A stretch of 64,000 nt of DNA from Alphaproteobacteria bacterium (GCA_049297695.1 JBAQUT010000004.1:1170-65169), one strand, 5' to 3'; positions 1-46,993 are shown, numbered from the stretch's first letter. Numbers and translations are program-made. The notes: generated by a model from the letters alone, not told the origin.

Positions 1-401
1 TTCGGTATGACCGTACTCAGCGTTTGGTGATTACTGATCGCGTGGGCGGCGAACCCCGTGCCACATCTGGTGTGGGTGTGGGTGGTAAATCTCCGGCAGG
101 ATACGATGTGGCGGTCACCGAAGCCGTGCTGAAAGAGGCCATTGTGAGCCTGCACTATGATGAAGTTCCCTTGGTAGATGCCCTTGAAAATATTGTGAAC
201 CAAGCAGGCAAAGGCCAATGGCGCCTGCGCATGTATGCTGGCACCGACCAAGTGCTGAAACCCGCCCACGTGGAAGAACCCTTTGGTGTAGCGGTGGAGC
301 GTATTTTGCGGGTGTTTAACTTGAAATACGAAATTTTCCCCGGCGGTAAACTGATTGTGGTGACGGCAGGGGATAGCTTTGGGTTTAGGGGAGTTCAATG
401 A
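1..401 (+). CDS. TcpQ/PilL-like type IVb pilus biogenesis protein, C-terminal part (5' end lies outside window)
   Basis: The open frame runs off the left edge. Its stop overlaps the secretin start (ATGA). Its C-terminal ~80 aa (..GKLIVVTAGD) resemble the C-termini of the lipoproteins at 11201 and 13938. Confidence 0.55.
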   Translation, partial: RYDRTQRLVITDRVGGEPRATSGVGVGGKSPAGYDVAVTEAVLKEAIVSLHYDEVPLVDALENIVNQAGKGQWRLRMYAGTDQVLKPAHVEEPFGVAVERILRVFNLKYEIFPGGKLIVVTAGDSFGFRGVQ

Positions 402-9598: not shown

Positions 9599-9608
9599 GG
9601 AGATACGT

Positions 9609-11200: not shown

Positions 11201-13945
11201 ATGAACAAGGTCTGGTCACGGTGCTGCATTCCCACCGCGTTGGCGTTAAGCCTCGCGGGGTGTATGGTTGCATCGCAATCCCAAACCAGTCTTGGCGATT
11301 TCCAACTCCCCACGGCCCAACAAAATCAAGCCCAACAAACGGTGGTGGTAGAAAATCGCATGGCGGCGCTGACGCCCATGGTTCCAGCCAGCAAGCCAAT
11401 CCCGCGCAGCCTTGTGTTGCTCCGCCGGACCGAACCTGTGGAACGACCCCCAAGCCCGGAAGAGTTGGAAGCCAAAATCCAACGCATGGCCGGTGCCTTG
11501 GTGGCCGAGCGGGAGCAGGCTATTTTGGAAGCCGCCGCCGCTGCCAGCGCCCAACAAGCGGGCTTGATTGCTGCCCAAACAGGCCAACAACTGGCGGCCT
11601 CCGAGCAACGGTTGAAGCAGTACAGCGATGCCTTAACCCAGCAAGTGGCCACCGAAACCAAAACCTACGCCGCCCAAAATACCCAAGCCACGGCCGACCA
11701 ATTGAAAACCTTTGCCGAGGAAGCCGCCGCCCGCGCCGCCATGGCGGCCCAGCAAGCCGCCACTGCTACCTCCGAGCAACAAGCCAAACAAGCCGAAGCC
11801 CGCAGCAAAGCCTTTGTGGTGGGCGAGCTGGCCACGCGTGAAAGCATCACCGCCGCCAAACTGGGCGAACTTTCCGCCCAAGCCAGCGCCTCCGAAGCCC
11901 GTACCAAGGCGTTGCTAGAAACATCGTCCGCCCAACTGGCCGCGCTTACCCAAACCACGTCGGCCCAGCTTTCGGCGCAACAACAGGTGTTGGCGGCGCA
12001 ACTTTCCGCCCAGCAGCAAACGGCCAGCGCTACCAGCTCGGCTAAGTTGGAAGCCCTTGCCGCCAGCAACAACGCCTACTGGCAATCCACCCAAAGCCAA
12101 TTGGTGGGGTTGGATAACCAAACCACCAAAGCCTTGGCCGATGTGCGCATGCAACTGGCCGCCGCCAGCCAGCAAGGCAAAGAATATGCCCGCCTCCAGG
12201 CTTTGGAAGCCCAGCTGAAGGCCCAGCAAAACGCCATTGCTACCGCCCAAACCGAGGCCCAGCAAGCCGAATCCCGCGCCAAAACCTTTACAGCCGAGCA
12301 GATGGCCGCCCGCAACGAAGTGATAGGAAGCCAGATTGCGGCGTTGAAAGAAACCACGGGCATACGGTTTGATACCAACCAAAAACTTACCGAAGCCAAA
12401 TTGGAAAACGTGGCCACGCGCCTGAACGCGGCGGACGCCCAAACTCGCACCGAACTGGCCGCTAACCAGAAGGTGAACGAAGCGCGGTTCTCCAACGTGG
12501 TATCAAAATTGGAGCAAGGCCAACAGTTGACCAAAGCCGAATTGACCCAACTTCAGCAAGCAACAGCCAGCCAGCTAGGGGCCTTGGATAAGTCCACCGC
12601 CGACCGCATCCAAAACTTGGCCGATAACACCCGTACTGGCATCCAATGGCAGCAAGATATGACCGCCGCCCAATTGGCCGCGCTGGATGATAAAACCCAA
12701 TCCAATCTGCAAGCCATTCAACACACCACGGGCAGCCAGTTTGAAGCCATGAACGCCATTCAAGCCGCCCGCCACCAAGCTACGGTGCAACAGCTGGCAG
12801 GCGTGCAAGAAGCCACCAACGCCAAACTGGACGCTGCCGAAATGGCCAGCAGCTTGCGTAATGCCCAAACCGTGCAACGGCTGGAAGATTTGGAACAGCT
12901 TACCGCCAGCAACCAACGCCTGATGCAAGCCGAAAGCCGCCGGATGGCCAGTGTGCTCTCGCAATACACCGATACCCAGTTTGCGGCCCTTTCCCAGCAA
13001 ACCGATGCCACCATCGCCCATGTGGCCAGCGTGGGTAAAATGGATGTGGAAGACCTCCGCCACGATACCGCCAATCAATTGAAAACCTATTATCAAGCCG
13101 CCAAGCTGAAATCGGAGCAGCTCACCAAAGCCACCGAAACCAAGCTTGCTAACCGTATCGCCCAAGCCCAAACGGAAAGCGAAACCAAGCGCCTGAAACC
13201 GGAACAGGTGAAGGCCATGGCGAAAGAAACCTTTGCCGAATCCGCCCCCGAAGTCCGTGCGGTAACGTTGCAAACCTTGGCCGATGCCCAAGATTACATC
13301 CGCACCGTGGCCAGCAACGCCGTGAAAGATGGCGACCCCGAAATGGGCAAAGCCCTGCAGAAAGCCGCCCGCGACGTGATTGTGAAAGACAAAGATATCG
13401 TGTTCGCCATGCGCAAAGTGGCCGACAAACAGTTGGAAAAACGTTTGGTGGAACTCAACCAACCCACAGGCCCCGTGAAAGACGCCCAAGGCCGTACCAC
13501 CGTGTACAGCGCGGGGGATGACGTGAGCATCAACAGCAAAGGTTTGGGTGTGGCGCCGATTGGTGGCGATGCCGCCATTGAACCCGCCGCGGGCGACGTG
13601 AAACTGGCTGGCCTTGCCAAACCCAGCATGATGAAGGCCCGCCAGCGCCAAGATTGGATTGATTTGCGCAAATACCGCGTTATTGTGCACGAAGACGGTA
13701 AAACCTTGCCTCAACTGTTGGGCGACGTGATGGGCAAAGCCGAAACCTACACGGGACCGTGGGAAGTCAAATGGAAGATTGACCCCAAAAACAACGATGT
13801 GCTGAACGAAAAATTCAGTTTGGATGCCGAAACCACGTTTGAAGAGTTTGTGAACTATTTAGCCAACTACATGGTCAACGCCCGCGGGGTTAAGCTATCC
13901 TTCAGCTTGTTTGATAGCGAACGGGTGCTGGTGATCAGTGATTAA
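11201..13945 (+). CDS. Giant coiled-coil lipoprotein (914 aa) with TcpQ/PilL-like C-terminal domain
   Basis: Lipobox LSLAGC. About 650 aa of A/Q/T-rich heptad-like repeats (AQLSAQQQ..). Conserved C-terminal domain ..GVKLSFSLFDSERVLVISD. Confidence 0.7.
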   Translation: MNKVWSRCCIPTALALSLAGCMVASQSQTSLGDFQLPTAQQNQAQQTVVVENRMAALTPMVPASKPIPRSLVLLRRTEPVERPPSPEELEAKIQRMAGALVAEREQAILEAAAAASAQQAGLIAAQTGQQLAASEQRLKQYSDALTQQVATETKTYAAQNTQATADQLKTFAEEAAARAAMAAQQAATATSEQQAKQAEARSKAFVVGELATRESITAAKLGELSAQASASEARTKALLETSSAQLAALTQTTSAQLSAQQQVLAAQLSAQQQTASATSSAKLEALAASNNAYWQSTQSQLVGLDNQTTKALADVRMQLAAASQQGKEYARLQALEAQLKAQQNAIATAQTEAQQAESRAKTFTAEQMAARNEVIGSQIAALKETTGIRFDTNQKLTEAKLENVATRLNAADAQTRTELAANQKVNEARFSNVVSKLEQGQQLTKAELTQLQQATASQLGALDKSTADRIQNLADNTRTGIQWQQDMTAAQLAALDDKTQSNLQAIQHTTGSQFEAMNAIQAARHQATVQQLAGVQEATNAKLDAAEMASSLRNAQTVQRLEDLEQLTASNQRLMQAESRRMASVLSQYTDTQFAALSQQTDATIAHVASVGKMDVEDLRHDTANQLKTYYQAAKLKSEQLTKATETKLANRIAQAQTESETKRLKPEQVKAMAKETFAESAPEVRAVTLQTLADAQDYIRTVASNAVKDGDPEMGKALQKAARDVIVKDKDIVFAMRKVADKQLEKRLVELNQPTGPVKDAQGRTTVYSAGDDVSINSKGLGVAPIGGDAAIEPAAGDVKLAGLAKPSMMKARQRQDWIDLRKYRVIVHEDGKTLPQLLGDVMGKAETYTGPWEVKWKIDPKNNDVLNEKFSLDAETTFEEFVNYLANYMVNARGVKLSFSLFDSERVLVISD

Positions 13946-15392
13946 GAACAATAACCTTCACCGCTGCATGCTCGTAGGGGCCAGCTTGGCTTTGCCCAGT
14001 TTGGGGTTTGCCTTGGCGGAACGCCTCCCCGCCATCGAACGCGGTGTGAAAGACGGCGTGGTGATAGCCGAAACCCGCATGGCCCAAGGCGATAGCTCGG
14101 TGATTGATGCCCTTGGCCAACCCGCCGATTGCAACGGCCCCGCCCTGCAGGTGAAAGTGGCCAGCGCCTTGGGCGAAAGCCACGCCCTGTACGATGCCAG
14201 CGGCGAACCCTGCAGCGATGCCAGCTTGTTGTTTGATGGCACCAGCGCCCTGGGCCAGCGTGCGGCCGACCCCGCCGTGCAAATTGGCTTTGTGGATGCT
14301 TTGGGCGCGTTCCCCGCCGAAACCCTTCCCGCACTCCCCCGCATTGTGGTGAACAGCGACCTCATGCCCGCCGACGCTCCGTTGGCGACACCTACTAACC
14401 CCGTGGGCGCCCCAGCGGCCGATCCCTTGGCGGAAACCATCCGTGCCTGGCAAGGCAACGTGGCCCAACTGGACGACCAAACCCAACGGGATGAGATTAT
14501 CGGCCAAGGCGAAGCCACCCAAGCTGCCTTGCGGAGCCTAGACCGTCAAACCGTGGATGTTTCCAGCCAGCACGACAAAGTGAACACCCTGCTGGCCAGC
14601 CTGCGGGAAAAAGAACGGGAACTGGCCGCCGCCGAAGCCCGCGCCAAATCCAGCCGCTTGAACAGTCAACAGCAACGGAGCATGGCGGAAGCCACGCTCA
14701 CCAAAGCCCAACAGGCCGAACAAGCTATGCGGGCGGAACTTCAAGCCGCCAAAGAGCGCTTGGCCCTGCAAGAAACCCAAAACCAACAATTGGCCGCCAG
14801 CAAAGCGAAGCAGGAAAAACTCCTTACGGGCCAAATCGCCTCCATGGGGGATGATTTGAAAGCGGCGGAAGCCAAAGCCAACGCCGGCCGCCAAGAGCTG
14901 ATTGCCCAAGCCGCCGCCAAAATTGCCGAAGCCGAAGCCTTGGCCAACACCGCCCGCCTGCAGGAGGCCGATGCCAAAGCCCGCGAAGCCGCCCGCCTGA
15001 AACAAGAGGCCGAAACCATGCTGGCCCGCGCCATGGATTTGGCCAACAACAAGGCCGTGATTGCGAGCGGTATGGAAAACATCTCTCCCAAGGCCGCCCC
15101 TATGGCGCTGATGGACGTGCCCGTGGTGTTCCATGCCACCAACCAAACCCTGCCGGAGTTGCTGCAAGCCATCGTGAAGCAAGCCGAACCCCAAGCTGGC
15201 GCATGGAAAGCCGATTTCCAACTGACCAAAGCCAACAGCTTTATTTTATCTGAAAAATGGAGCCTCACCGCCGAAGCCCCCGTGAAAGACCTGCTGGATA
15301 TCCTTACCCAGCAAATCCAAACCGCCCATAAAGTGAAACTCACCTTCACCCAGTTTCCTCAAGCACGGTTGGTGGTGGTGACAGATAACTAA
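13938..15392 (+). CDS. Secreted coiled-coil protein (484 aa) with a C-terminal domain paralogous to the preceding gene
   Basis: Signal peptide. Coiled-coil middle region. C-terminus ..KVKLTFTQFPQARLVVVTDN aligns with the C-termini of 11201..13945 and 1..401. Confidence 0.65.
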   Translation: MIKNNNLHRCMLVGASLALPSLGFALAERLPAIERGVKDGVVIAETRMAQGDSSVIDALGQPADCNGPALQVKVASALGESHALYDASGEPCSDASLLFDGTSALGQRAADPAVQIGFVDALGAFPAETLPALPRIVVNSDLMPADAPLATPTNPVGAPAADPLAETIRAWQGNVAQLDDQTQRDEIIGQGEATQAALRSLDRQTVDVSSQHDKVNTLLASLREKERELAAAEARAKSSRLNSQQQRSMAEATLTKAQQAEQAMRAELQAAKERLALQETQNQQLAASKAKQEKLLTGQIASMGDDLKAAEAKANAGRQELIAQAAAKIAEAEALANTARLQEADAKAREAARLKQEAETMLARAMDLANNKAVIASGMENISPKAAPMALMDVPVVFHATNQTLPELLQAIVKQAEPQAGAWKADFQLTKANSFILSEKWSLTAEAPVKDLLDILTQQIQTAHKVKLTFTQFPQARLVVVTDN

Positions 15393-15397
15393 CAACG

Positions 15398-15532
15398 ACA
15401 TCGTCGTCATGGCGAGCGCAGCGTGGTCATCTCAAGCCAAGAGGTATAAACAAGGGTTAAGGGGGCGCTAGCCCCCTTACGCCGCAGGCGTCATTCCGGC
15501 CGCAGAGCCGGAATCCAGAGCTCACAACGAAG
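15398..15532. repeat. GC-rich palindromic intergenic repeat (copy A; REP/MITE-like family)
   Basis: Modules gtcgtcatggcgagcgcagcg...atctcaagcc and gggttaagggggcgctagcccccttacgccgcaggcgtcatt recur at 16.65, 22.25 and 53.9 kb. Confidence 0.6.
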
Positions 15533-15662
15533 CCACCATAAGGCATATTTTTGGTGCTATAAAGCAACACCTGCCTCCTGCTACCTGCTACCTGCCTCCT
15601 GCAAGGCCTTGCAAACCTCGCCCGCCGCCCCATAATGTATCTAACCAAAGGAGAAACAACCT

Positions 15663-16034
15663 ATGAAATTATCGTCCAACGCCCTTCTGACTGTAGCCTT
15701 AGTGGCTGTTCTAGTACTGGTGGGAACAGATGTACATGCCCAAACAACTGGTGTTCTTTATACAAAAACGCGTGATTTAGTTACTGGAAATATTGGGTTC
15801 TTTATTGGCCTGCTGCTTGCAGTATGGGGTATCTGGACTTGGGTTGTAAAACAAGAAACCATGGCTGGAATTTTTATGATTGTGGGTGGTGTTTTGATTA
15901 CCATTTCTCCGGGTGTACTTAACTTTATGAGCAGTATTGTTAACCCTGTTGCTAAGCTTGGTGCAACATCACTCACAGAAGTTAAAGGTTCTAATGAAAC
16001 TAAAGATTTGATTGGTATTGGTAGTGGGCAGTAA
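15663..16034 (+). CDS. VirB2/TrbC-like T4SS pilin (paralog 1)
   Basis: RBS AAGGAGAAA. Signal peptide ending AQ plus two hydrophobic helices. 123 aa. Confidence 0.7.
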   Translation: MKLSSNALLTVALVAVLVLVGTDVHAQTTGVLYTKTRDLVTGNIGFFIGLLLAVWGIWTWVVKQETMAGIFMIVGGVLITISPGVLNFMSSIVNPVAKLGATSLTEVKGSNETKDLIGIGSGQ

Positions 16035-16346
16035 ATGATTAAAAAACTAAATATCTTGTGTGTGGGGCTGCTGATATTTCAGCCCCTTTTTGTTTTTGCG
16101 GCTGAGTCTGATGTTGCAGGTAGTCGTGAATTGAGTGCATTGAGCAATGTTGTAACAGGCCAGTTAGGTTTTTTTGTAGCCCTTGTGTTGGCCATATGGG
16201 GTATTTGGAAAATGTTTGTGTCTGGGGAAAATGCGGCAGGTTTCATTCTGTTAATTTGCGGCGCGGCTCTAACAATATTCCCTGGGATATTTAATTTTGC
16301 TGAAAGTATAGTTGTTCCATTTGCAAAAGCGATTACAGGTGGTTGA
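16035..16346 (+). CDS. VirB2/TrbC-like T4SS pilin (paralog 2)
   Basis: ATG immediately follows the previous stop. Same signal-plus-2-TM architecture, 103 aa. The mature part (GFFVALVLAIWGIWKMF..) aligns with paralog 1. Confidence 0.7.
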   Translation: MIKKLNILCVGLLIFQPLFVFAAESDVAGSRELSALSNVVTGQLGFFVALVLAIWGIWKMFVSGENAAGFILLICGAALTIFPGIFNFAESIVVPFAKAITGG

Positions 16347-16355
16347 TATTTTATT

Positions 16356-16625
16356 ATGAATGCCCGCCCCGTCCCCCGCAACATTGACCGCCCCAACCGT
16401 ATCCCCGAATACGTCATTACATGGACGGCATCTTACTACGGCACCATGTTTGTCTCCCGTGAAGCCATTCTTGCCTTTTTGATTTCCTTCATGGCCGTCT
16501 ACCTCATGTACCGCTTCACGCTGGAAAAGCCCGAAGGCATCATGATGCGCATGCTGTACAAATACGTGCAAATCGGCAAGCTGCGGCCAAGCCCACGGTT
16601 TGTGAAACGGTTTGAGCTGTCGTGA
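16356..16625 (+). CDS. Small inner-membrane T4SS protein (VirB3/TraL-like)
   Basis: 89 aa with a single TM (ILAFLISFMAVYLMY). Positioned directly after the pilin genes, as in vir/tra operons. Confidence 0.45.
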   Translation: MNARPVPRNIDRPNRIPEYVITWTASYYGTMFVSREAILAFLISFMAVYLMYRFTLEKPEGIMMRMLYKYVQIGKLRPSPRFVKRFELS

Positions 16626-16649: not shown

Positions 16650-16835
16650 TCATGAGGGGGAGGGGGTTAAGGGGCGCAGCCCCTTACGCCGTAGGCGTCA
16701 TTGCGAGCGAAGCGCGGCAATCTCCCAAGCTTTGAGTTGACAGATTGCCGCGTCGGACGCGCTCCACGCGCTCCCTCCTCGCAATGACGCTCCGCGTTAT
16801 AAGGGGGTAACCCCCTTAACCCCCAACTTGTCGTG
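16650..16835. repeat. GC-rich palindromic intergenic repeat (copy B)
   Basis: Contains a ~100-bp imperfect palindrome (ggcgtcattgcgag ... ctcgcaatgacgc). Its terminal 50-bp module cgttataagggggtaacccccttaacccccaacttgtcg is nearly identical to 54093..54131. Confidence 0.65.
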
Positions 16836-18751: not shown

Positions 18752-19519
18752 ATGATGCTGCTGCGCGCCGCCCTGATGTTACTCTGCCTGCTGGCCCCTG
18801 TGGCCCATGCCGACTATGAGCGTGACCCCTACAGCGCCACCATTGCCCGCGAAAGCTGGAACCTGATTGGCCGCACCGAACAAACCAACAATATCCCCGC
18901 AGGCTTACTGCACGCCATGAGCCTCACCGAAACGGGCCAAGGCATGAGCGGCTGGATGATGCCCTGGCCCTACACCGTGGGCGTTAACAGCCCTGGTAAA
19001 AAAGATTACCTCAAACTCCAGCATGCCCTGAACGACCTTGCATGGTTCCGCAAAATGGGGTTCGCCCGGTTTGATGTCAGCGCCGGTGGTAAATCCGTGA
19101 ACGGCCTCAAGGTGGATGCCGCCGCCGTGCTGTTCAACCTGTACCCTACGGCCACCAGCTACACCATCAAGCCCCAGCCCTACGGCCGCCGGTTTGCCAA
19201 CGCGGTGGAAGCCCGCGCCTTTGTGGATAAAATGTTCAGTTTTGGCCATAAAAATTTGGATTTGGGCCTCATGCAAATCAATTACAAAGTGCACGGTTCC
19301 AAATTCCGCAGCGTGAACGACCTGTTCAACCCCGTGGTGAACGTGAATTACGCCGCCAGCTACCTGCTGGAACACAAACAAACCCGCGATTGGTGGGGCA
19401 GCGTGGGCCGCTACCACAGCGCCACTCCCACCTACGCCCGCAAATACATTACCAGCGTGTACAAGTGGTACAAACGGGTTCATGACTTCAACAATGGTCG
19501 CCAGATTGCGGCGCGGTAG
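18752..19519 (+). CDS. Specialised lytic transglycosylase (SLT domain; VirB1/PilT(R64)-like)
   Basis: Signal peptide. GLMQI motif plus the conserved E..S..GA..LMQ pattern. Confidence 0.85.
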   Translation: MMLLRAALMLLCLLAPVAHADYERDPYSATIARESWNLIGRTEQTNNIPAGLLHAMSLTETGQGMSGWMMPWPYTVGVNSPGKKDYLKLQHALNDLAWFRKMGFARFDVSAGGKSVNGLKVDAAAVLFNLYPTATSYTIKPQPYGRRFANAVEARAFVDKMFSFGHKNLDLGLMQINYKVHGSKFRSVNDLFNPVVNVNYAASYLLEHKQTRDWWGSVGRYHSATPTYARKYITSVYKWYKRVHDFNNGRQIAAR

Positions 19520-19583
19520 GGCTTGAAAGTGTCAGATCAGTTCCCCATATACCCTATAAAGGTAATGTAAAAGGAGCAAAATC

Positions 19584-19943
19584 ATGATTAAGCTTGGAAA
19601 TGTGACTATGGATGCCGAACGTTTAAAGTCGGTTATTCAAACCTTTCATGATGATCAAATTGAAGAAATGGCCTATTGGTTTTCATCGACCCTTGGATTT
19701 GGGTTACCCGAAGGTCATTCAAATGTAAAAGAAGCTCTTCTTTCTATTATTGATGAGAAAAGGATTCATCCAGAACTTGCAACAGCTCTTTACGCTGCGT
19801 TTATTGGTATGCGCATAGAAGAACAACGTGAAAAAGCACCAGAGAAGAAGCATTTTCGGATAACACGATTTGGTATTGTTGAAAAAGAAACGTCAAAAAC
19901 TTTCCGTATTGTTGATGATGGCCGAGATAATGAGCGCAGTTAA
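19584..19943 (+). CDS. Hypothetical protein, AT-rich islet gene
   Basis: Strong RBS AAGGAG. Clearly lower GC than flanking genes. Confidence 0.55.
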   Translation: MIKLGNVTMDAERLKSVIQTFHDDQIEEMAYWFSSTLGFGLPEGHSNVKEALLSIIDEKRIHPELATALYAAFIGMRIEEQREKAPEKKHFRITRFGIVEKETSKTFRIVDDGRDNERS

Positions 19944-20077
19944 TATCTTGTCTATGATCTTTGATCTCATACCTCTGACCATCTTCCCACACCCCCGTCA
20001 GTTTTCGAACCCTCAATCCTGACATCCCTCCCACACCTCTGCTAAGGTGCCCATAACAACAAAAAGGGTACTTTCGT

Positions 20078-22246
20078 ATGGCCAAAGCCAAACCTACCAA
20101 GGCCGCCAAGCATGTTGCCAAGGCTGCGCCTAGTGAGGTGGTTAAGGCGAAGGCCAAACCTGTCGCCATGCCTGCCGAGGACGACCTGAAAGCCGCCGAC
20201 GAAGGCTACCAACTGGCCCGCAAAGATGCCGCCAAATACCTTCACAGCCGCCGCCAAGCCATGTTTGCCCTCTCCCGCCGTTACCATTTGGAACCCGAGG
20301 ATGTGGAGCAAGAAGGTTTTGAAGTGCTGCTCACCTGTTTGCGGGATTTCAAACCCCAGTACACCAAAGCCAACGGCGAAACCATTCACGTACTGTTCAA
20401 CACGTTTTTTGGCAGCCGGTTGGATGGCAAGGCGCTGGAACTCCGTAACCGCGACCCCGAATACCAAGCCCGCCAAGCGCATTTGGAAGATATGTCGGAG
20501 GCCGATAAAACAGCTTTCCGCCAAGCCCCGCCGTTGTTAGTGCAACATCTCGACCAACAAACCTCCATGCAAGAACACCTTACCAGCGAGGCCTCCAACG
20601 CCCGCCGCAGCAATCAGGTGAGCACGGCCATGAAGATTGCCCACGACAGCTTCATTGATAAAAAACTCAACCAGCTGATAGCCCAAGAGCGCGATGACAA
20701 ACGCCGCGCTGCCCTGATGCATGTGAAGGTGGGCGGGGTGAGCAGCTTTGACGACATCGCCTACCACTTTGGGGTGACGGACAGCCGCGCCAGCCAGATT
20801 TTGAACGACCTGATGGACGCCTTTTACGTGCAACGCCTGCTGGATGGCGACCTGAAAAGCGTGGCGTACGATTGGAAAAAACTGAAAATGCAGCCCAAAC
20901 GCGCCGCCCGCCTTCTGGAAGACGCCGTGGCCAACAGCACGCGGGAACGCGCCAGCGAAATTGTGGCCGCCTTTGTGGCCGATTACCCCGAGGCGAAAAG
21001 CCTGCCGTTACCGGAACTCACGTCGGAGGCATCTGCCTCCGCCCCCGCCAAACTCACCACCGCAGGCACGGGCCGCACCTTTGCCGACCCCTTCACGGTG
21101 GACGACGATGCCCGCTACCCTTTGCTGGGTCTGGAATGGCGCAGCGTAGCCAGCCTGAACCCCCTGCACGTGCCCTTCCGCAACGGAGCAGATGACGCCC
21201 ACGAGCAACCCCACATCACCACCATCATGGCCACCGAGGCCGACCAATGGCCGCTCATCATCACCCACGAAGGCGGCGTGGTGGATGGCCAGCGCCGCTG
21301 GCATGCTGCCCAGCAGCGCGGCAAAGATAAAGTGCTATGCTTGGTGCGCCAAGTGCCCGAGCACGATGCTAAAATCATGCGTGTAGTAGCCAACTTGCGG
21401 CAAATCAAAGCCGACAAAATGGACGTGTACTTTGCCATCAGCGCCCTCAGCGATTTAGGGCTCTCCCAACAACGCATCGCTGCCGCCCTTGGTATTTCGC
21501 GCCCCAACGTGATTGTTTACGCCAAGGTGAAAGACAAAGCCACGCCCAAACTCCGTGCGTTGTTTGAGGATGGCTTCATCCAAATTACCAACGCCAGCGC
21601 CAGTGTGGATTTACCCGCCACCGCCCAAGACGGCATGGCGGAGTTCATCCGCAAACACGGTGCCACATGGGGCAAAGGCCCCCAGTTTAACGAGGTTTAC
21701 GAGGCCGCCGCCTCGGGCAAACTCTCCAAACTGGCCGCCATGCAACCGGAGCCTCAAGCCCCCAACACGACCGCAGCACCAACTCCCGCATGGGCGCCCG
21801 TTCCAGTATCCACCGCCATGGCCGTGGCCCCGGCCGACCAAAACGTGGTGCAAGCCCTGCGCAACCGTCAAACCGCCATGGAAACTGCCCTGCGCGACGC
21901 CGAAACCTGGGGCCAACAGCGGGAAGGGGTAGTAGCCCGCCAAACGTCAGAAATCACGGATTTAAAACAACAACTCGATGCCCTCAAGCGCGAACTTCAA
22001 GCCCACGACTTGCTGAAATACGGCGACGAAGCCACGGTGGCGGGTTTGATGAAAGAAATCAAAGGTTTTTACGCGGTGGTGGAACGCTTGGCTGGCGCCA
22101 GCTACCAACTGGATAAAGCCCATAAATCCCTGCGCGGCCAACCGTTAAGCTACAAACAAATCCAAGAGGTTCAAACGCTGACCGACACCATGGAAGCCAG
22201 CCTGTCCGCCCTGCGGGTGGAGCTTTCCAGCAAAAACCGTCGTTAA
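20078..22246 (+). CDS. Fusion protein: Lys/Ala-rich tail plus sigma-70 region2/region4-like plus ParB/Srx-like nuclease domain plus coiled-coil
   Basis: N-terminal AKAKPTKAAKHVAKA repeats. EDVEQEGFEVLLTCLRDFKP is region-2-like. VSSFDDIAYHFGVTDSRASQIL is a region-4 HTH. DGQRRWHAAQQ is a ParB GxxR motif. Confidence 0.6.
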   Translation: MAKAKPTKAAKHVAKAAPSEVVKAKAKPVAMPAEDDLKAADEGYQLARKDAAKYLHSRRQAMFALSRRYHLEPEDVEQEGFEVLLTCLRDFKPQYTKANGETIHVLFNTFFGSRLDGKALELRNRDPEYQARQAHLEDMSEADKTAFRQAPPLLVQHLDQQTSMQEHLTSEASNARRSNQVSTAMKIAHDSFIDKKLNQLIAQERDDKRRAALMHVKVGGVSSFDDIAYHFGVTDSRASQILNDLMDAFYVQRLLDGDLKSVAYDWKKLKMQPKRAARLLEDAVANSTRERASEIVAAFVADYPEAKSLPLPELTSEASASAPAKLTTAGTGRTFADPFTVDDDARYPLLGLEWRSVASLNPLHVPFRNGADDAHEQPHITTIMATEADQWPLIITHEGGVVDGQRRWHAAQQRGKDKVLCLVRQVPEHDAKIMRVVANLRQIKADKMDVYFAISALSDLGLSQQRIAAALGISRPNVIVYAKVKDKATPKLRALFEDGFIQITNASASVDLPATAQDGMAEFIRKHGATWGKGPQFNEVYEAAASGKLSKLAAMQPEPQAPNTTAAPTPAWAPVPVSTAMAVAPADQNVVQALRNRQTAMETALRDAETWGQQREGVVARQTSEITDLKQQLDALKRELQAHDLLKYGDEATVAGLMKEIKGFYAVVERLAGASYQLDKAHKSLRGQPLSYKQIQEVQTLTDTMEASLSALRVELSSKNRR

Positions 22247-22335: not shown

Positions 22336-22413
22336 ACCTGTCCCGCCACACCCCCACCCTCAAAACCCGCCCTACCCCTTGAACCCGCCCCCAAACCATC
22401 CCATCCTGTACCT

Positions 22414-24315
22414 ATGGCCCCAAAAAACCTAGGCTCGTGCGCGCATCTCATCACCGTTGTGGTGGTGGTGCTGTCTCTCACACTCTCTACACTGGTGCCG
22501 CAGGCGGCAGTGGCGGGCGGGTATTCCGGCAGCTACGAAAGCGGCAACCCCTCCCGTGGTAACTTGGGTGGATTTATCCCCAATTATGGCGGCGAGAGCG
22601 AACTTTTCAGCGTTAAATCGAGTAGTGGCGTCGGCGCAAACCTGGGCTGCGGAATGATGAACTACATGGATTTCGTCAAAGCCACGTTCAATGTGTCGGA
22701 TATGGCTGATCAGTTTAAGGGTATGATGCAAACATTTATGGCTAAGATTTTGTTAACATATTTAATGTCATTTCCTCCCATTGCAGCCGCATACGATGCC
22801 ATTAACTGGTTGGCCGATGCTAAGGCTAAGGTGTTTAACCAAAGTTGCGATATTGCCGAAGCCCGTAAAGACGGCGCCAAGTTGTACAAAGGGATTTGTA
22901 ACGATGCGTACAGCGCAGCAAAAACAGGTGATTGCACGAATATAAATTCTGTTGATCCTATGAGAGCCATCATGTTTTGCGAACAAGCGTTGAAAGATGG
23001 GCCTGATGTCTTCATTACCCGCTGCATGGCAAACTCGGAGCCTTTAAAACCTTTGATTGCTGCGGCTGATAAGGCTCTCCAACAGGTTAAAGAGGAGTTT
23101 TTTGGTGATCCTGTAGGTTGTCATAGAGGAGATATCTGCGACAGTGCAGAGGCTCCAGGTGCAGGAAGCAAGGTTGTAGCAGGTTGCTTGGCCATGAGTT
23201 ACATGCCTCGGATTTGTTTTGAAGCAAATGGAAGTCTTGGAAACAAGGGTATGGGTGGTAGTAAATGTGTTGGAGGTAAACGGCGTAAGCCACCTATCTC
23301 TATGGATGGAGTAACTCAAGCCTTTATCCAATATAGCATGTACACGATGGATGCCTGTGGGCGTGTGTGGGATGATATCCGCAAGGCCGACCCCAATATG
23401 GAAGCTTCTACCATTGAGAAAATTGGTACTGAGGCCATTGCTTTAGCTAATACTGACCAACTCACAATGTCCTCCAACCAAGTGGCACCATTAGCCCAAG
23501 GACCTCTGAAATTAGCCTTTACCGATATGTCTCTTGTTCTGAAAGCGTTTGGGGCGACGGCAACGAACGAATCCCGCAACAAAATGCTCCAAGATTATGT
23601 GGATAACGAGCTGCCGGGGATTGATTTGAACGGCCCCAGCAAAGAGTTGTTGAACCCCTTGCGGATGTGCAAATTTGTGGCGGAAGCTGCCCGTGCTGAA
23701 ATGGCGTTGCAGGGTAAAAACGCTCAGATATCTGATCCAGAAATGGGCGGTAAAGTGGATGCTGCCCAGTTCTTCAACCTTCCCAGCACAGGAGAAACTT
23801 CTGACAAGTTGGCGGCCGATGGGTTGGATGCCCAAACAGCTGCCCTGATGTTGGAATATACCTTTGGTTACATTGTGAATGTTCAAGGTGGAATTAACAT
23901 GACCAACCCTGTTGCTATGTCTAAGTTAGCGTTAAGTTCGGGCAGAGTGTGGGGTGATTGGGCGAGTGATAGAGGTATGGATGTTTCATGCATGGGTATG
24001 GATAAAATCTTGGACTATTTAAATGGTGTAATTATAAAAGCTCAAACCACAGCTGGGTCTCAAAATGTAACTAGTGGAAGTACCACAACCAAAGAAGGTG
24101 CAGATACAAGTACAAAAGCATGTAATGCACCTATTGAGGCTGTTAAAAAACAATCGGAAAAAACATTTGATTATTTAGAAAAGTATTTTAAAAGCTTAAA
24201 AGATAAAAATACGTTGTGGTGTTCTAACCGCCCTAAACTCCAAGAGCGCAACAGGCAGTTCTTTACCCCCGAGAACACCTTTGCCCCCACTCGCTCGGAT
24301 GCAGGTAACCTGTAA
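22414..24315 (+). CDS. Cys-rich secreted or membrane-anchored protein (633 aa), compositionally AT-rich
   Basis: N-terminal hydrophobic anchor. About 18 Cys. GC drops sharply from ~22.7 kb to the 3' end. Confidence 0.6.
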   Translation: MAPKNLGSCAHLITVVVVVLSLTLSTLVPQAAVAGGYSGSYESGNPSRGNLGGFIPNYGGESELFSVKSSSGVGANLGCGMMNYMDFVKATFNVSDMADQFKGMMQTFMAKILLTYLMSFPPIAAAYDAINWLADAKAKVFNQSCDIAEARKDGAKLYKGICNDAYSAAKTGDCTNINSVDPMRAIMFCEQALKDGPDVFITRCMANSEPLKPLIAAADKALQQVKEEFFGDPVGCHRGDICDSAEAPGAGSKVVAGCLAMSYMPRICFEANGSLGNKGMGGSKCVGGKRRKPPISMDGVTQAFIQYSMYTMDACGRVWDDIRKADPNMEASTIEKIGTEAIALANTDQLTMSSNQVAPLAQGPLKLAFTDMSLVLKAFGATATNESRNKMLQDYVDNELPGIDLNGPSKELLNPLRMCKFVAEAARAEMALQGKNAQISDPEMGGKVDAAQFFNLPSTGETSDKLAADGLDAQTAALMLEYTFGYIVNVQGGINMTNPVAMSKLALSSGRVWGDWASDRGMDVSCMGMDKILDYLNGVIIKAQTTAGSQNVTSGSTTTKEGADTSTKACNAPIEAVKKQSEKTFDYLEKYFKSLKDKNTLWCSNRPKLQERNRQFFTPENTFAPTRSDAGNL

Positions 24316-24392
24316 CCTGCCCACCACACATGCAAACAACCTGACAGCTTAAGGTTTCCCCTCTATACTTTCTCAAAACAAGGGGAGGGGGC

Positions 24393-26387
24393 ATGGCGCG
24401 GCGCAAGCAACACACCAGCATTGTGCCGCCGCAGGGCATCCCCGCCGTGGCGTTGCGGATTAACCTTGCCGAGGGCGAACACCCCAGCCAGCTTATCGCG
24501 TTTACCAGCCTGCATAATCTATCAGCTATCAACCCCGAAGCCGAAACGCTGTTGCTGGAACTGCCCGTAGCCCCACTCACTGACGGCCACCATCATATGG
24601 AGGATGAAGGCTACAAAGCCGCCATGGGCCAAGCCGACATATGGCCCCTTGCCCCCGTGTTTGTGCGGGATGTGGCGGGCCGCGTGGTGCACACGGGATT
24701 GAATCCGCTTCCCGTGCCCCCACCGTTCCCCATCATGCCGGAAACCTGCCAGTACGTGCCGCCGGAAACCGAAGGTTACGGCCTGTTGGATAAAACGTTT
24801 TTCACCAGCTTCCGCACGCTGGAGTGGGGTTACGGCGAAGGCACGGTGCTCACGGGTCGCCCTACCTACACCGCCCATGCCCTGTACCCCGCCCCCCAGC
24901 TGTACCCGTACAAGCTGCGGGTGGATAGTTTCTATCAGGATGGCTTCCGCCTGCCCCAAGTGGAGCGTTTGTACGTGCAGCCCTCAAATCCCTTGGAGGC
25001 CACCAAGCACGGCGATGAGCTGATAGCCCGCTGGAACGCCCGACCCGCAGGGCAAACGTACCAAGAGTTTTACGAAGCCAACGAAGGCGACGCGTGGTTT
25101 GAAACGATGTTCCAAGCAGGCTGCACGGTAGTGCCCACGCTGGAAGCCACCAACGGCAGCTACGTGGTGGATGATGCCTACGGCTTGGTGGATGCCTGGC
25201 CAGGCTGCGTGGTAGAAGGTTTGCACGAGGTGGCGGATTACAAACCAGATGCCAGCCCTGCGGGCACCATTGTGGAGGTGCTCCAACCCGGCTACGCCAC
25301 CCGTGCAGGTGTGGTGCCCGCCAAGGTAGTAGCCAGCGATGGCAGCGGGTATGTCTCCCGCGTGGGAGATGTACCCGAACCCATGCAGCCCGACCCCCAA
25401 CTCCCCCACCCCCGCGTAGGCAACTTTGCAGGCGTGTGGTTGCCTACCCATCCCGGTCATTTTGAGCTTCCCGCCCTGTGGGATTGGAACGCCCAAGGTC
25501 ATTTTCAGCAAATGGCTGGCCCCTTGTGGGACCCCGTGCATTACACCTACACTAGCACCCCTCGCATCCTCAAAGCCTTCCGTAGCGTGGAGGCCAGCAC
25601 CCCCCACCAAGCGCCGGTGCCGGAAGATATGCTCCCCCGCTTTCACCCCGTGTGCGGCCTTAAAACCTACGATACCTTCAACACCGCCACCGCCCGTATG
25701 CGAGGGTTGCAGGCAGGGGCTTCTCCGTTGCATGATACATGGATTGATGCCGTGCCCTTGGGCCGCACCGTGGCCGATGTTGGTTACCATCCATTGCCCC
25801 CCGCGTTGGAGTACGAGCTAGACCCTGCGGTGTTTCCCAACCTCAGTCCACGGAACATCACCGCCGAAGCAGGCGCCAACCTTGCGCCTGTTATTACCAG
25901 CATGGTGACAGCGGAAGAAGCTGCTAAACTCATGGTCATCCATGCCGAACCTGACCGCCGGTTCATGCTCAACCCCACAAACTTTGAAGGCGGATACGGG
26001 TTAGAACGCTTCACCCAACCCGAACCACCTACCGAACGCCAACCCCAAGGCTGGATGATGTTGCCCGACATAACCACCAGCGATTTGATGGTGAACGTGA
26101 AGCGGTTTTTCATGAGCAAAGCGTATGTGGATAGGTTGAAAAAACTCCACCCCACCTTGTACAAGCAGTTTTACGTGTTTCGTGAACAAGCTTTGGCGTG
26201 GCGCCGCCTGCGCCACCGGTTGGCCCGCAAGTACGTGGGGTGGTATCAACATATGTGGTGGTTTGGGCACACACCCACCCATACCGAAACACAGGTACGG
26301 GAACAGCTAGAATACCGAATGTTGGAGGCTGAACGCAGCCTTAAAGCCCAAACAGGCTTGATGGTAAGGGATTTTAAGAGGGAGTAG
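24393..26387 (+). CDS. Large hypothetical protein (664 aa), no TM or signal peptide, Trp/Pro-rich
   Basis: GGAGG RBS. Continuous ORF in operon orientation inside the T4SS module. Confidence 0.55.
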   Translation: MARRKQHTSIVPPQGIPAVALRINLAEGEHPSQLIAFTSLHNLSAINPEAETLLLELPVAPLTDGHHHMEDEGYKAAMGQADIWPLAPVFVRDVAGRVVHTGLNPLPVPPPFPIMPETCQYVPPETEGYGLLDKTFFTSFRTLEWGYGEGTVLTGRPTYTAHALYPAPQLYPYKLRVDSFYQDGFRLPQVERLYVQPSNPLEATKHGDELIARWNARPAGQTYQEFYEANEGDAWFETMFQAGCTVVPTLEATNGSYVVDDAYGLVDAWPGCVVEGLHEVADYKPDASPAGTIVEVLQPGYATRAGVVPAKVVASDGSGYVSRVGDVPEPMQPDPQLPHPRVGNFAGVWLPTHPGHFELPALWDWNAQGHFQQMAGPLWDPVHYTYTSTPRILKAFRSVEASTPHQAPVPEDMLPRFHPVCGLKTYDTFNTATARMRGLQAGASPLHDTWIDAVPLGRTVADVGYHPLPPALEYELDPAVFPNLSPRNITAEAGANLAPVITSMVTAEEAAKLMVIHAEPDRRFMLNPTNFEGGYGLERFTQPEPPTERQPQGWMMLPDITTSDLMVNVKRFFMSKAYVDRLKKLHPTLYKQFYVFREQALAWRRLRHRLARKYVGWYQHMWWFGHTPTHTETQVREQLEYRMLEAERSLKAQTGLMVRDFKRE

Positions 26388-26493: not shown

Positions 26494-27933
26494 ATGGCCG
26501 ACCCTTTACTTCCCCAACAGCCCAAAACCCCGTCTGAGGGCGGGATGAACATTGTGGAGCGTCTTCGGGAACTTCCAACTCCTGCCAAAGCCGCGTTGGG
26601 CGTGGTGGGTATGGGCGTGTTGTACTTGCTGGTGGGCGGCGGCGGTGATAATGCCGTGCAACAAGGCGCTGCCGTGAACACCACCAGCCAAGCCGCGTTG
26701 CAGCAAGATGGCCAGCCTCAAGGCGATGGCGTGTTCAGCGGAATCGAATCCGACAGGCCCGTGCTAATGCAAGGTTGGTTGGAACAAAACCGCCGTGAAA
26801 TGAGCGAGCTGAAAGAAACGATTCAAACCAAGTTTGACGAAAAAGACAAAGCCTTGGCCGATGCCTTGCAAAACAACGCCGACCTGCAAGCCCAAATGCG
26901 CCAAATGATGGCCGATTTTACCGCCGAAGTACGCAACATTCAAACCAGCAACCAGCGGGACAAGGAAATGCTGGACCAGCTGGCGGAAGAGCAACGTAAA
27001 CTTCAGTTGGACGCCCCTGTGGATGGCGTAACAGGCGTAGGCCCCGTGATGCGCACCCAAAAACGGATTGAACAAACCCCCTTGGGCGGCGGTGGAGGAG
27101 GGCAAGTGCAGGGGCAGCCCCTGTTAGCCCCTTTAGGGGCGGTGGCCGGTAGGGCCACGCAAAGCAACGGGGCTGCCATGGCCACGGTGTCGGGGGATGG
27201 TGATGGGGTAGAGCCTGTTCAAAACCTGCCCTTCGTGCCCCCTTTGGGCTTCATTAAAGGCACGCTGTTGAACGGGGTGGATGCTTTGGTGGGAGGGCAA
27301 CCCACGCCGTCGTTGGTCCGTCTTTCGGGCAACTACAAAACCGCCATGGGCACCACCGTGCAGTTGGATGGTTGCTATGCTCTGGTTGAATTTCAAGGCG
27401 AAATCTCCACCGAGCGGGCCGTGGGTAAACCCGCTCGCATGACGTGCGTGTACCCCGACCAAGGGGCGGTTACTTACAGTTTGTCGGGGTATGTGGTGGA
27501 TAGCGAAGATGGCATTATCGGCATCCCCGGTATCTTTTACGAAGGCGATGCCAGCCGCATAGCCGCCGCCATGATGGCCGACTTTGCCGCAGGCGTAAGC
27601 GCCGTGGTAAAAGACAGTCAAACCACCACCAGCGTGGATAGCGCCGGTAACGCCACCCAAAGTATTACGGGCAGCGAACTGAAGGGCGAGATTGCCGGTG
27701 GCGTGGAAAAAGCCGTGGGAAGTTTGCGTGATTACCTGCTGCAACGCGTAACCCGCGTGTTGCCGTTTGTGCGGCTGGATGCTACCCGCCAAGTGCACCT
27801 TGTGTTCCTTTCAGGCACCGAATTGCGGGCCGAAGGTTCCCCTTGGACCTTGCTGTTTGATGCCGAAGCGGCTGACCAAGCCCGTGCTGGCGCTGCGGCC
27901 CAAACACCATCTAACGAGAACAACGGAGGCTAA
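26494..27933 (+). CDS. VirB10/TraB-like bitopic T4SS protein
   Basis: Short cytoplasmic N-terminus, one TM, low-complexity linker, coiled-coil, then a C-terminal beta-rich domain. An alternative start at 26545 has a better RBS. Confidence 0.5.
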   Translation: MADPLLPQQPKTPSEGGMNIVERLRELPTPAKAALGVVGMGVLYLLVGGGGDNAVQQGAAVNTTSQAALQQDGQPQGDGVFSGIESDRPVLMQGWLEQNRREMSELKETIQTKFDEKDKALADALQNNADLQAQMRQMMADFTAEVRNIQTSNQRDKEMLDQLAEEQRKLQLDAPVDGVTGVGPVMRTQKRIEQTPLGGGGGGQVQGQPLLAPLGAVAGRATQSNGAAMATVSGDGDGVEPVQNLPFVPPLGFIKGTLLNGVDALVGGQPTPSLVRLSGNYKTAMGTTVQLDGCYALVEFQGEISTERAVGKPARMTCVYPDQGAVTYSLSGYVVDSEDGIIGIPGIFYEGDASRIAAAMMADFAAGVSAVVKDSQTTTSVDSAGNATQSITGSELKGEIAGGVEKAVGSLRDYLLQRVTRVLPFVRLDATRQVHLVFLSGTELRAEGSPWTLLFDAEAADQARAGAAAQTPSNENNGG

Positions 27934-46903: not shown

Positions 46904-46993
46904 AGGGGCACTTTGTACCAGAACATCTTGGCGGGCAAGCCGATTTGCGCTAGGTTGCAGCGGTTAACCCCATTCATAACAGGAGAGAGTGCC

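Follow-up and report, generated by a model that had tools for sequence, protein, structure and literature searches.

A sigma-like/ParB fusion protein as a candidate dedicated transcription regulator of a divergent type IV secretion cluster in uncultured Alphaproteobacteria

A 64,000-nucleotide (nt) stretch of DNA from an Alphaproteobacteria bacterium (GCA_049297695.1 JBAQUT010000004.1:1170-65169; hereafter the window) contains, on its plus strand, a gene encoding a protein in which a half resembling sigma-70 factors is joined to a ParB/KorB-type module, and this gene lies within a cluster of type IV secretion system (T4SS) genes. The sequence evidence presented below makes it, on balance, modestly probable that the fusion protein is a transcription regulator dedicated to this locus, in which the ParB/KorB module, a coiled coil and a sigma-derived effector would act together at two promoters containing the hexamer CTGACA. 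An earlier note on this DNA had suggested a novel transcription or partition factor, or an anti-silencing factor. A transcription factor dedicated to the locus is the best-supported of these readings, because synteny is strict over ~30 genomes, two helix-turn-helix (HTH) modules are conserved, and a promoter/operator signature is present at two sites. The literature that we searched holds nothing specific on a sigma-ParB fusion in T4SS or extracytoplasmic function (ECF) sigma contexts, nor on an association of such a fusion with T4SSs, and we found no earlier description of this domain combination in a T4SS cluster.

The gene has the bounds and the strand given in the earlier note, and is a single intact open reading frame (ORF). 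Its product of 722 amino acids (aa) has the same length and sequence as an NCBI protein from a metagenome-assembled genome (MAG; protein P0001), which is annotated as 'ParB N-terminal domain-containing protein [Alphaproteobacteria bacterium]' and is encoded on a contig of 74,285 bp. A search of a large protein database yielded at least 140 relatives at E<=0.001, all of those found coming from metagenomes or MAGs of uncultured alphaproteobacterial origin; among the 120 matches listed, most are 687-797 aa long, with a query coverage of 94-100% and an identity of 41-100%. These numbers show that the fusion is real and old, and is neither an assembly nor a frameshift artefact. Two genes joined or split through a sequencing error, a possibility raised earlier, are thereby ruled out. 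A plasmid, phage or viral origin was likewise rejected, as IMG/VR, INPHARED and PLSDB contained no relatives of the protein apart from one weak ParB-domain match. The gene and the parts of its product are as follows.

20078-22246, plus strand: coding sequence of the sigma-like/ParB fusion protein (722 aa, ATG start, stop codon 22244-22246)
20078-20185, plus strand: disordered Ala/Lys/Pro-rich basic tail, residues 1-36 (composition, predicted local distance difference test (pLDDT), conservation 0.28)
20186-20455, plus strand: sigma region-2-like domain, residues 37-126 (motif D-V-x-Q-E-G-F at 75-81; F107-x-T109-F110)
20456-20692, plus strand: helical middle segment, residues 127-205 (invariant PPLLVQHLD at 151-159; possibly sigma-3-like or a linker)
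20693-20851, plus strand: sigma region-4-like HTH, residues 206-258 (AYHFGVTDSRASQ at 228-240 invariant; conservation 0.87)
20852-21097, plus strand: helical extension 259-310 followed by a disordered linker 311-340 (AlphaFold2 model, conservation)
21098-21412, plus strand: ParB N-terminal (CTPase-fold) domain, residues 341-445 (Box I F367-R368; Box II D403-G404-Q-R406-R407; Box III R435, N439, R441)
21413-21742, plus strand: ParB/KorB-type HTH DNA-binding domain, residues 446-555 (GLSQQRIAAALGISRPNV; conservation 0.70)
21743-22243, plus strand: Pro/Ala-rich linker 556-586 and three long C-terminal helices, residues 556-722 (presumed coiled-coil dimerisation module)

Conservation was assessed in a family alignment (A1) of 41 diverse members, to which all per-member counts refer, and the structure of the 722-aa protein was modelled with AlphaFold2 (mean pLDDT 78.8). 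Expressed as majority fraction per segment, conservation is highest in the sigma-4-like HTH (0.87), followed by the sigma-2-like domain (0.72), the ParB DNA-binding domain (0.70), the middle segment (0.69), the C-terminal helices (0.54) and the ParB N-terminal domain (0.52), and is lowest in the tail and linkers (0.23-0.30; tail 0.28). The most conserved parts of the protein include the two DNA-binding HTH modules, and the 13 consecutive invariant residues AYHFGVTDSRASQ of the sigma-4-like HTH form its most conserved segment. The combination of four parts in one polypeptide that had been read from the sequence was borne out, the sigma part only as a remote relationship.

Profile searches detected both the sigma-like and the ParB-like parts. 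The NCBIfam sigma-70 model TIGR02937 matched residues 46-246 (model positions 13-158 of 165, E=8.2e-8) with a score of 32.1 bits, which is under its curated cut-off of 42.9, and it matched 38/41 members of the family (best E=1.5e-12). Pfam HTH models matched residues 222-256; Sigma70_r2 was matched at E<0.1 by two of the 41 members, and the match to Sigma70_r4 was weak and in the window's protein is located on the ParB HTH instead. In the AlphaFold2 model, residues 37-126 form a confident helical domain with a small hairpin. The sigma-2 and sigma-4 domain folds are present in canonical order. They are separated by conserved helices of ~80 residues, unlike the short linker of ECF sigma factors.

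Alignment by eye to sigma sequences revealed three resemblances. D-V-E-Q-E-G-F at 75-81, in which Q78 and E79 are invariant, resembles region 2.2, and we take its core D-[LV]-x-Q-E-G (75-80) to correspond to the core-binding motif of that region. F107-N-T-F-F-G-S-R-L-D-G-K-A-L-E-L-R-N-R-D presumably corresponds to regions 2.3-2.4, and G-V-T-D-S-R-A-S-Q-I, close to G-E-S-R-V-S-Q-L of FliA, presumably to region 4.2. To our eye these motifs look as much like group 3 (FliA-type) as like ECF. No match to an anti-sigma gene was found among the neighbouring genes scanned, which are T4SS components. The proposal that the protein carries ECF region-2-like and region-4-like segments is therefore to be kept for the sigma-2/-4-like domains and dropped for 'ECF', in view of the score below cut-off, the ~80-residue helical spacer and the lack of an anti-sigma gene among the neighbours.

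The central part of the protein is related to ParB. TIGR00180 matched with E=9e-7 and Pfam ParB_N with E=1.8e-4 (sub-threshold), both with scores under the family cut-offs; TIGR00180 was matched by 30/41 members, the Pfam KorB domain by 11 and HTH_ParB by seven. When the family profile was compared with the PDB, Thermus Spo0J (1vz0, E=8e-6) and B. subtilis ParB (6sdk, E=2e-5) were retrieved, and in the alignment with 1vz0 the family's 'DGxRR' falls on the Box II 'GERR' with the ParB HTH in register. Residues 341-445 were modelled as a mixed alpha/beta domain, and Foldseek searches with the full model retrieved solely ParB, Noc, KorB and pNOB8-ParB structures, each over ~200 columns (6sdk, the best, E=8.7e-6; Noc 7nfu, 1.1e-5; KorB structures 2e-4 to 5e-3, with 8qa9 at 2e-4). 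In the Box II arginine patch, G404 and R407 never vary, and 38/41 members have R406. At the Box I position, 29 members have Arg and nine have His, and N439 of Box III is kept in 40/41, with the Glu of ENxxR replaced by hydrophobic residues. Thus, the ParB/sulfiredoxin-type domain with a GxxR motif recognised in the earlier note is indeed a ParB N-terminal domain followed by an HTH, of the ParB/KorB CTPase-fold-plus-HTH type and not a nuclease.

The C-terminal coiled coil proposed previously corresponds to three long helices in the AlphaFold2 model (587-646, 651-687 and 692-720), and some members gave weak coiled-coil-type matches to HlyD, SMC-related and Rad50 models. At the other end, the tail (residues 1-36) contains 11 Ala, 8 Lys/Arg and 4 Pro, has a net charge of +4, and shows pLDDT values below 50 at residues 1-28. 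Its length varies from 9 to 73 aa among homologues, and it is strongly Lys/Ala/Pro-rich in the closer relatives and almost absent from a distant clade. Composition and disorder support a basic low-complexity tail; the designation 'histone-H1-like' describes its composition only.

The second line of evidence concerns promoter-like sequences in the intergenic regions of the cluster. When bipartite words were counted de novo in intergenic sequence from 34 loci, with shuffled sequences as control, GCTGACA-N14-GGGCAT stood out (up to 10 loci versus a maximum of six in the shuffles). Follow-up of this word led to two orthologous promoter-like sites, one before the fusion gene and one before the homologue of the gene at 24393. 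In the window the elements are the following.

19987-19992, plus strand: CCACAC box, upstream element of the fusion gene's promoter region (second copy at 20031-20036, within the spacer)
19996-20001, plus strand: CGTCAG, the window's one-mismatch copy of TGTCAG, the inverted -35-like hexamer (from reading of the sequence)
20019-20024, plus strand: CTGACA, -35-like hexamer of the fusion gene's promoter (top enriched intergenic hexamer)
20040-20048, plus strand: TGCTAAGGT, extended -10-like element of the form TG-n-TAAGGT (18-nt spacer from CTGACA; ATG at 20078)
22346-22351, plus strand: CCACAC box between the fusion gene and the 22414 gene (intergenic box clustering)
24324-24369, plus strand: second promoter of the same class, before the 24393 gene (CCACAC 24324-24329, CTGACA 24341-24346, 17-nt spacer, TATACT 24364-24369; ATG at 24393)

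CTGACA is the most enriched hexamer of the coding strand in intergenic DNA (30 copies observed versus 2.0 expected, in 16/19 loci), and TGTCAG is the next (22 versus 3.3, in 17/19 loci); TTGACA has only four copies in the same DNA. All but one of the 30 CTGACA copies precede the fusion gene (18) or the 24393 homologue (11). The form conserved before the fusion gene in relatives is (C)CACAC-N3-4-TGTCAG-N16-27-CTGACA-N14-TGC(C/T)A..T, and that before the 24393 homologue is CCACAC-N11-13-(G)CTGACA-N17-CAT(T/A)(A/G)T. With the strict motif, 12/32 loci gave a match 45-64 nt ahead of the fusion gene's ATG and 13/20 gave one ahead of the 24393 homologue, and there were no matches upstream of seven other conserved genes of the cluster. 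On the plus strand of the 64-kb window, the full motif is confined to these two promoters. The pair TGTCAG-N16-27-CTGACA is kept upstream of the gene in most loci of >=48% identity; in a distant AT-rich clade CTGACA, with TTGCAA in front of it, is kept farther upstream of the gene. The base 5' of TGACA is C at 17 sites, G at two and T at none. The same intergenic regions, that of 22346 included, are where CCACA(C/G) boxes are clustered, and before the homologous gene 11 CCACA[CG] boxes were counted in nine loci (~3.2 per kb).

The distinctive features of these promoters are the CTGACA hexamer, its inverted copy and the CCACAC boxes. The -10 element is not distinctive, because the conserved housekeeping promoter of thrS (CTTGGC-N16-GCTA(G/A)GTT) has the same -10 type, GCTA(A/G)G(G/T)T being common to it and to the fusion gene's promoter in the window's subclade. 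The thrS promoter region as a whole (46904-46993; ~900-1000 in L034 and L035) is conserved as CTTGGCGGGCAAGC(C/G)G(A/C)TTTGCGCTA(G/A)GTTGC(A/G)GCGGTTAACCC, and illustrates the housekeeping -35/-10 form specific to this lineage. A promoter of another class, TTGCAA-N16-17-CATAAT at 15609-15636, precedes the pilin-like ORF at 15663 and is conserved in three other loci (L003, L012 and L023). A 14-bp palindrome at 15600 is part of this region, and the palindrome itself is not conserved.

Other candidate sites were rejected. Perfect palindromes and 10-12-mers shared across loci, collected as parS or operator candidates, turned out to be coding-sequence words only, and the intragenic palindromes at residue ~375 are a codon artefact of the peptide D-M-x-H-I. 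CTGACA sites outside the cluster, at 50621 and 63021, are no more than chance would produce, and their spacing or position does not suit a promoter. At the former site, CTGACActctttGGGCATTAT (50621-50641) combines the -35-like hexamer with an exact copy of the GGGCATTAT block found in the 24393-type promoters of relatives, at a spacing of 6 nt. This stretch falls within an ORF of the minus strand (50169-50741) and precedes infC by 230 nt; chance would account for the hexamer by itself, but the juxtaposition is odd.

The third line of evidence is synteny. In tblastn comparisons of the window's proteins with 33 loci, most of them comprising 10 kb on each side of the gene, the gene order was the same in every related locus with enough flank, amounting to ~30 genomes. 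The SLT gene lies on the 5' side, and the TrbI/VirB10-like and TraC/VirB4-like genes lie on the 3' side, all on the plus strand as is the fusion gene. This confirms the view that the gene is embedded in a cluster of T4SS genes, and it answers the question, left for checking by the earlier note, whether the architecture recurs beside T4SS genes in other genomes.

How such a protein could work is suggested by its parts. The ParB-type N-terminal domain would be a nucleotide-binding switch paired with the HTH DNA-binding domain, and the C-terminal coiled coil would allow loading on DNA as a dimer, possibly by clamping or sliding. The sigma-70-derived half, consisting of the sigma-2-like domain, the helical middle and the sigma-4-like HTH, would be the effector module, which may contact RNA polymerase and/or read the -35-like hexamer. 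Its targets would most likely be the two CTGACA promoters, namely its own (20019-20048) and that at 24341-24369, which appears to front an operon running into the VirB10-like and VirB4-like genes; the inverted TGTCAG copy and the CCACAC boxes could be additional contact sites. Regulation might consist of activation or of auto-repression, and the protein might replace or accompany the housekeeping sigma factor.

Several observations weigh against this proposal. Regarding the sigma-like half, the TIGR02937 score is sub-threshold, so that the relationship to sigma factors is a remote one. When this half was examined by Foldseek with the AlphaFold2 model, sigma factors of groups 1/2 (sigmaS, sigmaA, sigmaB) ranked first, with 230-300 columns aligned and non-significant E values (best 0.47). 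A profile of this half retrieved zero PDB chains even at E=10, and hhalign found nothing against E. coli sigmaE and aligned region 4 of FliA in register only weakly (E=0.005 at 7% probability). A sequence-level tie of the N-terminal half to solved sigma factors was consequently rejected, phmmer giving only a spurious match and the PDB profile search none. Among 1.84 billion representative proteins the profile retrieved 16, essentially all of them members of the fused family or fragments thereof, and no canonical or stand-alone sigma factor; no stand-alone or otherwise fused version of the N-terminal half was found. As the scores are sub-threshold, PDB matches are lacking and only its own family is retrieved, the N-terminal half appears to be a remote, isolated offshoot of the sigma-70 family, seen only in fused form. 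The sole match outside the family is a marginal one to a repeat protein of 792 aa (P0130), in which eight stretches align to the sigma-4-like segment (profile positions 176-225, E=2.7e-4), and which may be a protein of repeated HTH units.

Regarding the ParB module, a CTPase cycle is uncertain, because only 15/41 members have the catalytic Glu of GERR, and the family has not kept the Glu of ENxxR; a 2025 survey of ParB-CTPase folds reports that their nucleotide specificity is not predictable from sequence (PMC12704722). No parS-like palindrome or other loading site conserved across loci was found within 10 kb on either side of the gene, the region to which all statements on such sites refer. 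Finally, the two CTGACA promoters could be ordinary RpoD promoters, because the -10 element of the fusion gene's own promoter (GCTAAGGT) is of the thrS type and CTGACA matches TTGACA at five of six positions. The link between the protein and these promoters is circumstantial, and consists of co-occurrence and matching conservation.

Four other explanations were considered, whose likelihoods overlap with that of the general proposal and are not additive to it. The N-terminal half might be a bona fide alternative sigma factor that binds core RNA polymerase and initiates at CTGACA-N17-18-(TG)n(T/C)A..T promoters, its own included, with positive autoregulation as in many ECF sigmas, while the ParB module tethers it to the locus as a 'sigma on a sliding clamp' and confines the promoter search to the T4SS cluster. 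We regard this as rather unlikely. It would account for the sigma-2 and sigma-4 folds in the right order, for a promoter class restricted to the gene itself and one target operon, for an invariant sigma-4-like helix paired with an invariant hexamer over 42-100% protein identity, and for a TGACA preceded by C and never by T. The hand alignments point in the same direction, if, as we assume, the invariant Q78/E79 of D-[LV]-x-Q-E-G belong to region 2.2, F107-x-T109-F110 is equivalent to F-x-T-Y of region 2.3, and GVTDSRASQ is equivalent to GESRVSQ of FliA region 4.2. By the same kind of alignment, however, the residues with which sigma-70 reads the -35 element (R584, E585 and R588) are D, S and S here, though the hexamer is nearly TTGACA. 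Moreover, the -10 element is of the housekeeping type, the inverted TGTCAG...CTGACA suggests a dimer operator and not a directional -35 element, there is no adjacent anti-sigma gene, the similarity is sub-threshold and the N-terminal profile retrieves no canonical sigma. The specific form of this idea in which a true alternative sigma, joined to a nucleotide-gated ParB clamp, loads at a site in the T4SS locus and, by sliding along the DNA, brings RNA polymerase solely to those CTGACA promoters that it can reach, is in our judgement unlikely; if true, sigma activity would be spatially restricted to one chromosomal region, a way of confining a sigma regulon not previously described. A housekeeping-type -10 element and RpoD-like spacing fit another explanation, which we consider fairly doubtful: the promoters would be served by RpoD, and a KorB-like auto-repressor or silencer would bind as a dimer to TGTCAG...CTGACA and/or CCACAC and occlude the -35 region, the sigma-derived HTH being a plain DNA-binding domain that mimics sigma-4. 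An inverted repeat over the -35 region at the protein's own promoter only, and the C-terminal helices and ParB N-terminal domain suggestive of a dimer, agree with this, as does the precedent of KorB, described as a repressor of the ParB family with control over its own expression and over transfer genes (PMC11790492). However, a rigid dimer operator would not usually show the range of 16-27 nt seen between the inverted hexamers, the TGTCAG copy is missing at the 24393 promoter, and the strong conservation of the sigma-2-like domain (0.72) and middle segment (0.69) is unexpected if the HTH alone mattered.

The two remaining explanations assign the protein to DNA organisation. A DNA-handling role, either for the T4SS substrate or in maintenance of the locus, in which a ParB-like partition, relaxosome-accessory or DNA-condensing protein would bind a site in the transferred DNA and deliver or organise this DNA at the secretion machine, seems improbable to us. 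The ParB fold with its HTH, a basic tail plausible as a non-specific DNA binder and able, with the coiled coil, to serve DNA condensation, and a UvrD-like helicase gene directly upstream in most relatives are compatible with such a role, and ParB-like proteins are described as common on conjugative elements in the survey mentioned above (PMC12704722). Against it, no ParA-type match was found among the cluster ORFs scanned, the N-terminus consists of a basic tail and the sigma-like half and not of a ParA-stimulating or ParA-binding peptide, and no parS-like site was found; on these same points the partition factor suggested earlier has no support. In addition, no relaxase or coupling protein was recognised among the cluster and neighbouring ORFs scanned, the locus is chromosomal with a conserved neighbourhood, the window itself has no helicase gene, and the strongly conserved sigma-like half would be left without a role. 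A VirB-like anti-silencer, which would load in the cluster, spread, and displace a nucleoid-associated silencer from the T4SS genes, we consider very improbable. VirB itself is described as a CTP-dependent switch of the ParB family that acts as an anti-silencer counteracting H-NS (PMC10770331). The present cluster is not clearly foreign (GC 0.49-0.60) and appears vertically inherited, no silencer is known in the lineage, and the sigma-like half would again be unexplained.

Returning to the regulator dedicated to the locus, its closest documented analogues are, by comparison, ParB-family transcription regulators. Such regulators of conjugation and T4SS genes are already known, and what is unusual here is the sigma-derived module together with the promoter signature. 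BisD of ICEclc, an integrative and conjugative element (ICE) of Pseudomonas, combines a ParB-like CTP clamp with an extra domain for activation and dimerisation; after loading at bisS sites it spreads over ~50 kb and, together with BisC, switches on 11 ICE transfer promoters (PMC12409273). BisD and the fusion protein are both orphan ParB-family proteins with a GxxR-patch N-terminal domain, an HTH and long disordered linkers to an extra helical domain, and both are encoded among conjugation/T4SS genes, with control (BisD) or presumed control (the fusion protein) of several promoters in their own cluster. The extra domain of BisD, however, is C-terminal, of unknown origin and active with a separate FlhC-like partner, BisC, whereas the fusion protein carries a sigma-factor-like one at its N-terminus, and the neighbours scanned gave no match to a BisC/FlhC-like gene. 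Furthermore, BisD has E136-N137 of ENxxR where the fusion family has only the Asn, no NCBIfam ParB model of the ICE/PFGI-1 class matched the fusion protein at E<=10, no bisS/parS-like site was found, and the locus is chromosomal with a conserved neighbourhood in contrast to an ICE.

KorB of RK2 is described as a CTP-dependent sliding clamp of the ParB family and a transcriptional repressor (PMC11790492; PDB 8qa8/8qa9, 1r71). The likeness consists in the Foldseek and Pfam matches to KorB given above, and in the regulation of conjugative-transfer genes by KorB and, presumably, of the T4SS cluster by the fusion protein. KorB has a ParA partner (IncC), a co-repressor (KorA), a 13-bp palindrome and no sigma-like domain, whereas for the fusion protein no partner gene was found nearby and no palindromic operator was identified. 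With sigma-70 factors of groups 3/4 (FliA/sigma-28 and ECF), the fusion protein shares the sigma-2/-4-like order, motifs resembling regions 2.2, 2.3-2.4 and 4.2, and a candidate cognate promoter upstream of its own gene. It differs in being sub-threshold, in neither retrieving nor being retrieved with canonical sigmas at the profile level, in lacking an adjacent anti-sigma gene, and in being ~450 residues longer, the extension being a complete DNA-binding ParB module; C-terminal extensions occur in several ECF groups.

A fusion of a ParB-CTPase fold to a Pfam Sigma70 domain is reported in the survey of Kaljevic et al. (2025), in which the tested example, uvig_297896_22 of a gut phage, bound ATP (PMC12704722). 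It resembles the present family in having a ParB-CTPase fold and a sigma-70-type domain in a single polypeptide. It differs in being a phage protein with a Box II of GEHRVRA, the fusion family having DGxRR, being chromosomal in Alphaproteobacteria and tied to a T4SS, and lacking relatives in IMG/VR, INPHARED and PLSDB save for the weak ParB-domain match. A Pfam-based survey would mostly miss the fusion family, because both its domains fall under the Pfam thresholds.

ParB-family clamps (KorB, VirB, BisD) have recently been recognised as nucleotide-gated and as able to regulate transcription at a distance, which raises the question of how they communicate with RNA polymerase. Where such a clamp is fused directly to a sigma-derived module, a single polypeptide may itself provide the connection to RNA polymerase, and the question could therefore be reduced to one protein and two short promoter fragments. 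If the sigma-like half should be a re-used DNA-binding domain, it would plainly exemplify the conversion of a sigma factor into an ordinary transcription-factor module. In addition, the family is a marker of a T4SS/type IV pilus cluster that is deeply divergent, yet conserved and inherited vertically in an uncultured alphaproteobacterial lineage, and the fusion protein is probably the entry point to when this secretion machine is expressed.

The other recognisable genes of the cluster are listed here; those of the R64-type thin-pilus set lie upstream.

398-2323, plus strand: secretin, R64-type thin-pilus set
3089-5143, plus strand: PilQ-like ATPase, R64-type thin-pilus set
5187-6269, plus strand: PilR-like gene, R64-type thin-pilus set
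9375-10703, plus strand: prepilin-type protein, R64-type thin-pilus set
15663-16034 and 16035-16346, plus strand: tandem small pilin-like ORFs (123 aa and 103 aa; a signal peptide plus two hydrophobic segments in both)
16356-16625, plus strand: TraL/VirB3-like ORF of 89 aa, after the pilin-like pair
18752-19519, plus strand: SLT transglycosylase, upstream of the fusion gene
26494-27933, plus strand: TrbI/VirB10-like gene, downstream
28421-31015, plus strand: TraC/VirB4-like gene, downstream (E=1.7e-58 to F-type TraC, far below the cut-off)

The tandem small ORFs look like duplicated T4SS pilins of the VirB2/TraA type, judging from their predicted topology. Upstream of the fusion gene there are also two conserved unknown genes, beside the pilin-like ORFs and the 89-aa ORF, and two unknown genes (22414-24315 and 24393-26387) lie directly downstream, before the VirB10-like gene. 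The cluster (1-34600) is extremely divergent, with only the secretin, T2SSE, T2SSF, a prepilin N-terminus, SLT, TrbI/VirB10 and the TraC/VirB4-like ATPase being recognisable. The large proteins encoded at 11201-13945, 13938-15392, 22414-24315 (Cys-rich), 24393-26387 and 31546-33627 gave no family or meaningful PDB match. Typing the T4SS by its neighbours failed, since the 22414, 24393 and 31546 proteins are without Pfam, NCBIfam or meaningful PDB matches.

The region to the right of ~34.6 kb contains housekeeping genes (AcrB, RsmE, a PfkB-family kinase, ThrRS and IF-3). The thrS gene and its divergent hydrolase neighbour lie 26-52 kb downstream of the homologous gene in three other genomes, against ~24.5 kb in the window, and ThrRS similarity orders the same MAGs similarly, with cultured relatives all at <=~55% identity. 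The GC content across the window is 0.49-0.60, and the cluster is not clearly foreign in composition. Because the thrS neighbourhood is kept in other genomes and the ThrRS similarities follow a similar order, the cluster seems to be a resident chromosomal locus of a deep uncultured alphaproteobacterial lineage, apparently vertically inherited. The locus is thus not evidently an 'island', as it was called in the earlier note: thrS and its neighbour are found 24-52 kb downstream in four genomes, the window included.

Some minor features of the locus were also noted. In most relatives a UvrD-like helicase gene (~580 aa; 8103-9833 in L001 and 8044-9789 in L002) lies between the SLT and sigma-ParB genes. 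The corresponding region of the window (19520-20077) contains no helicase gene and has instead a 119-aa ORF (19584-19943), for which tblastn found no counterpart in the related loci. The intergenic DNA flanking the small pilin-like genes contains, at 15458-15500, 16667-16730 and 16800-16820, a GC-rich palindromic repeat, TTAAGGGG(G)CGC..GCCCCTTACGCCG(C/T)AGGCGTCATT... Judging from its sequence, it could be a repeat like a repetitive extragenic palindrome (REP) or a miniature inverted-repeat transposable element (MITE), or else represent terminator hairpins. Finally, in the housekeeping region, the thrS-infC pair is split by a 373-aa membrane-protein ORF (49051-50172) and the 190-aa minus-strand ORF (50169-50741).

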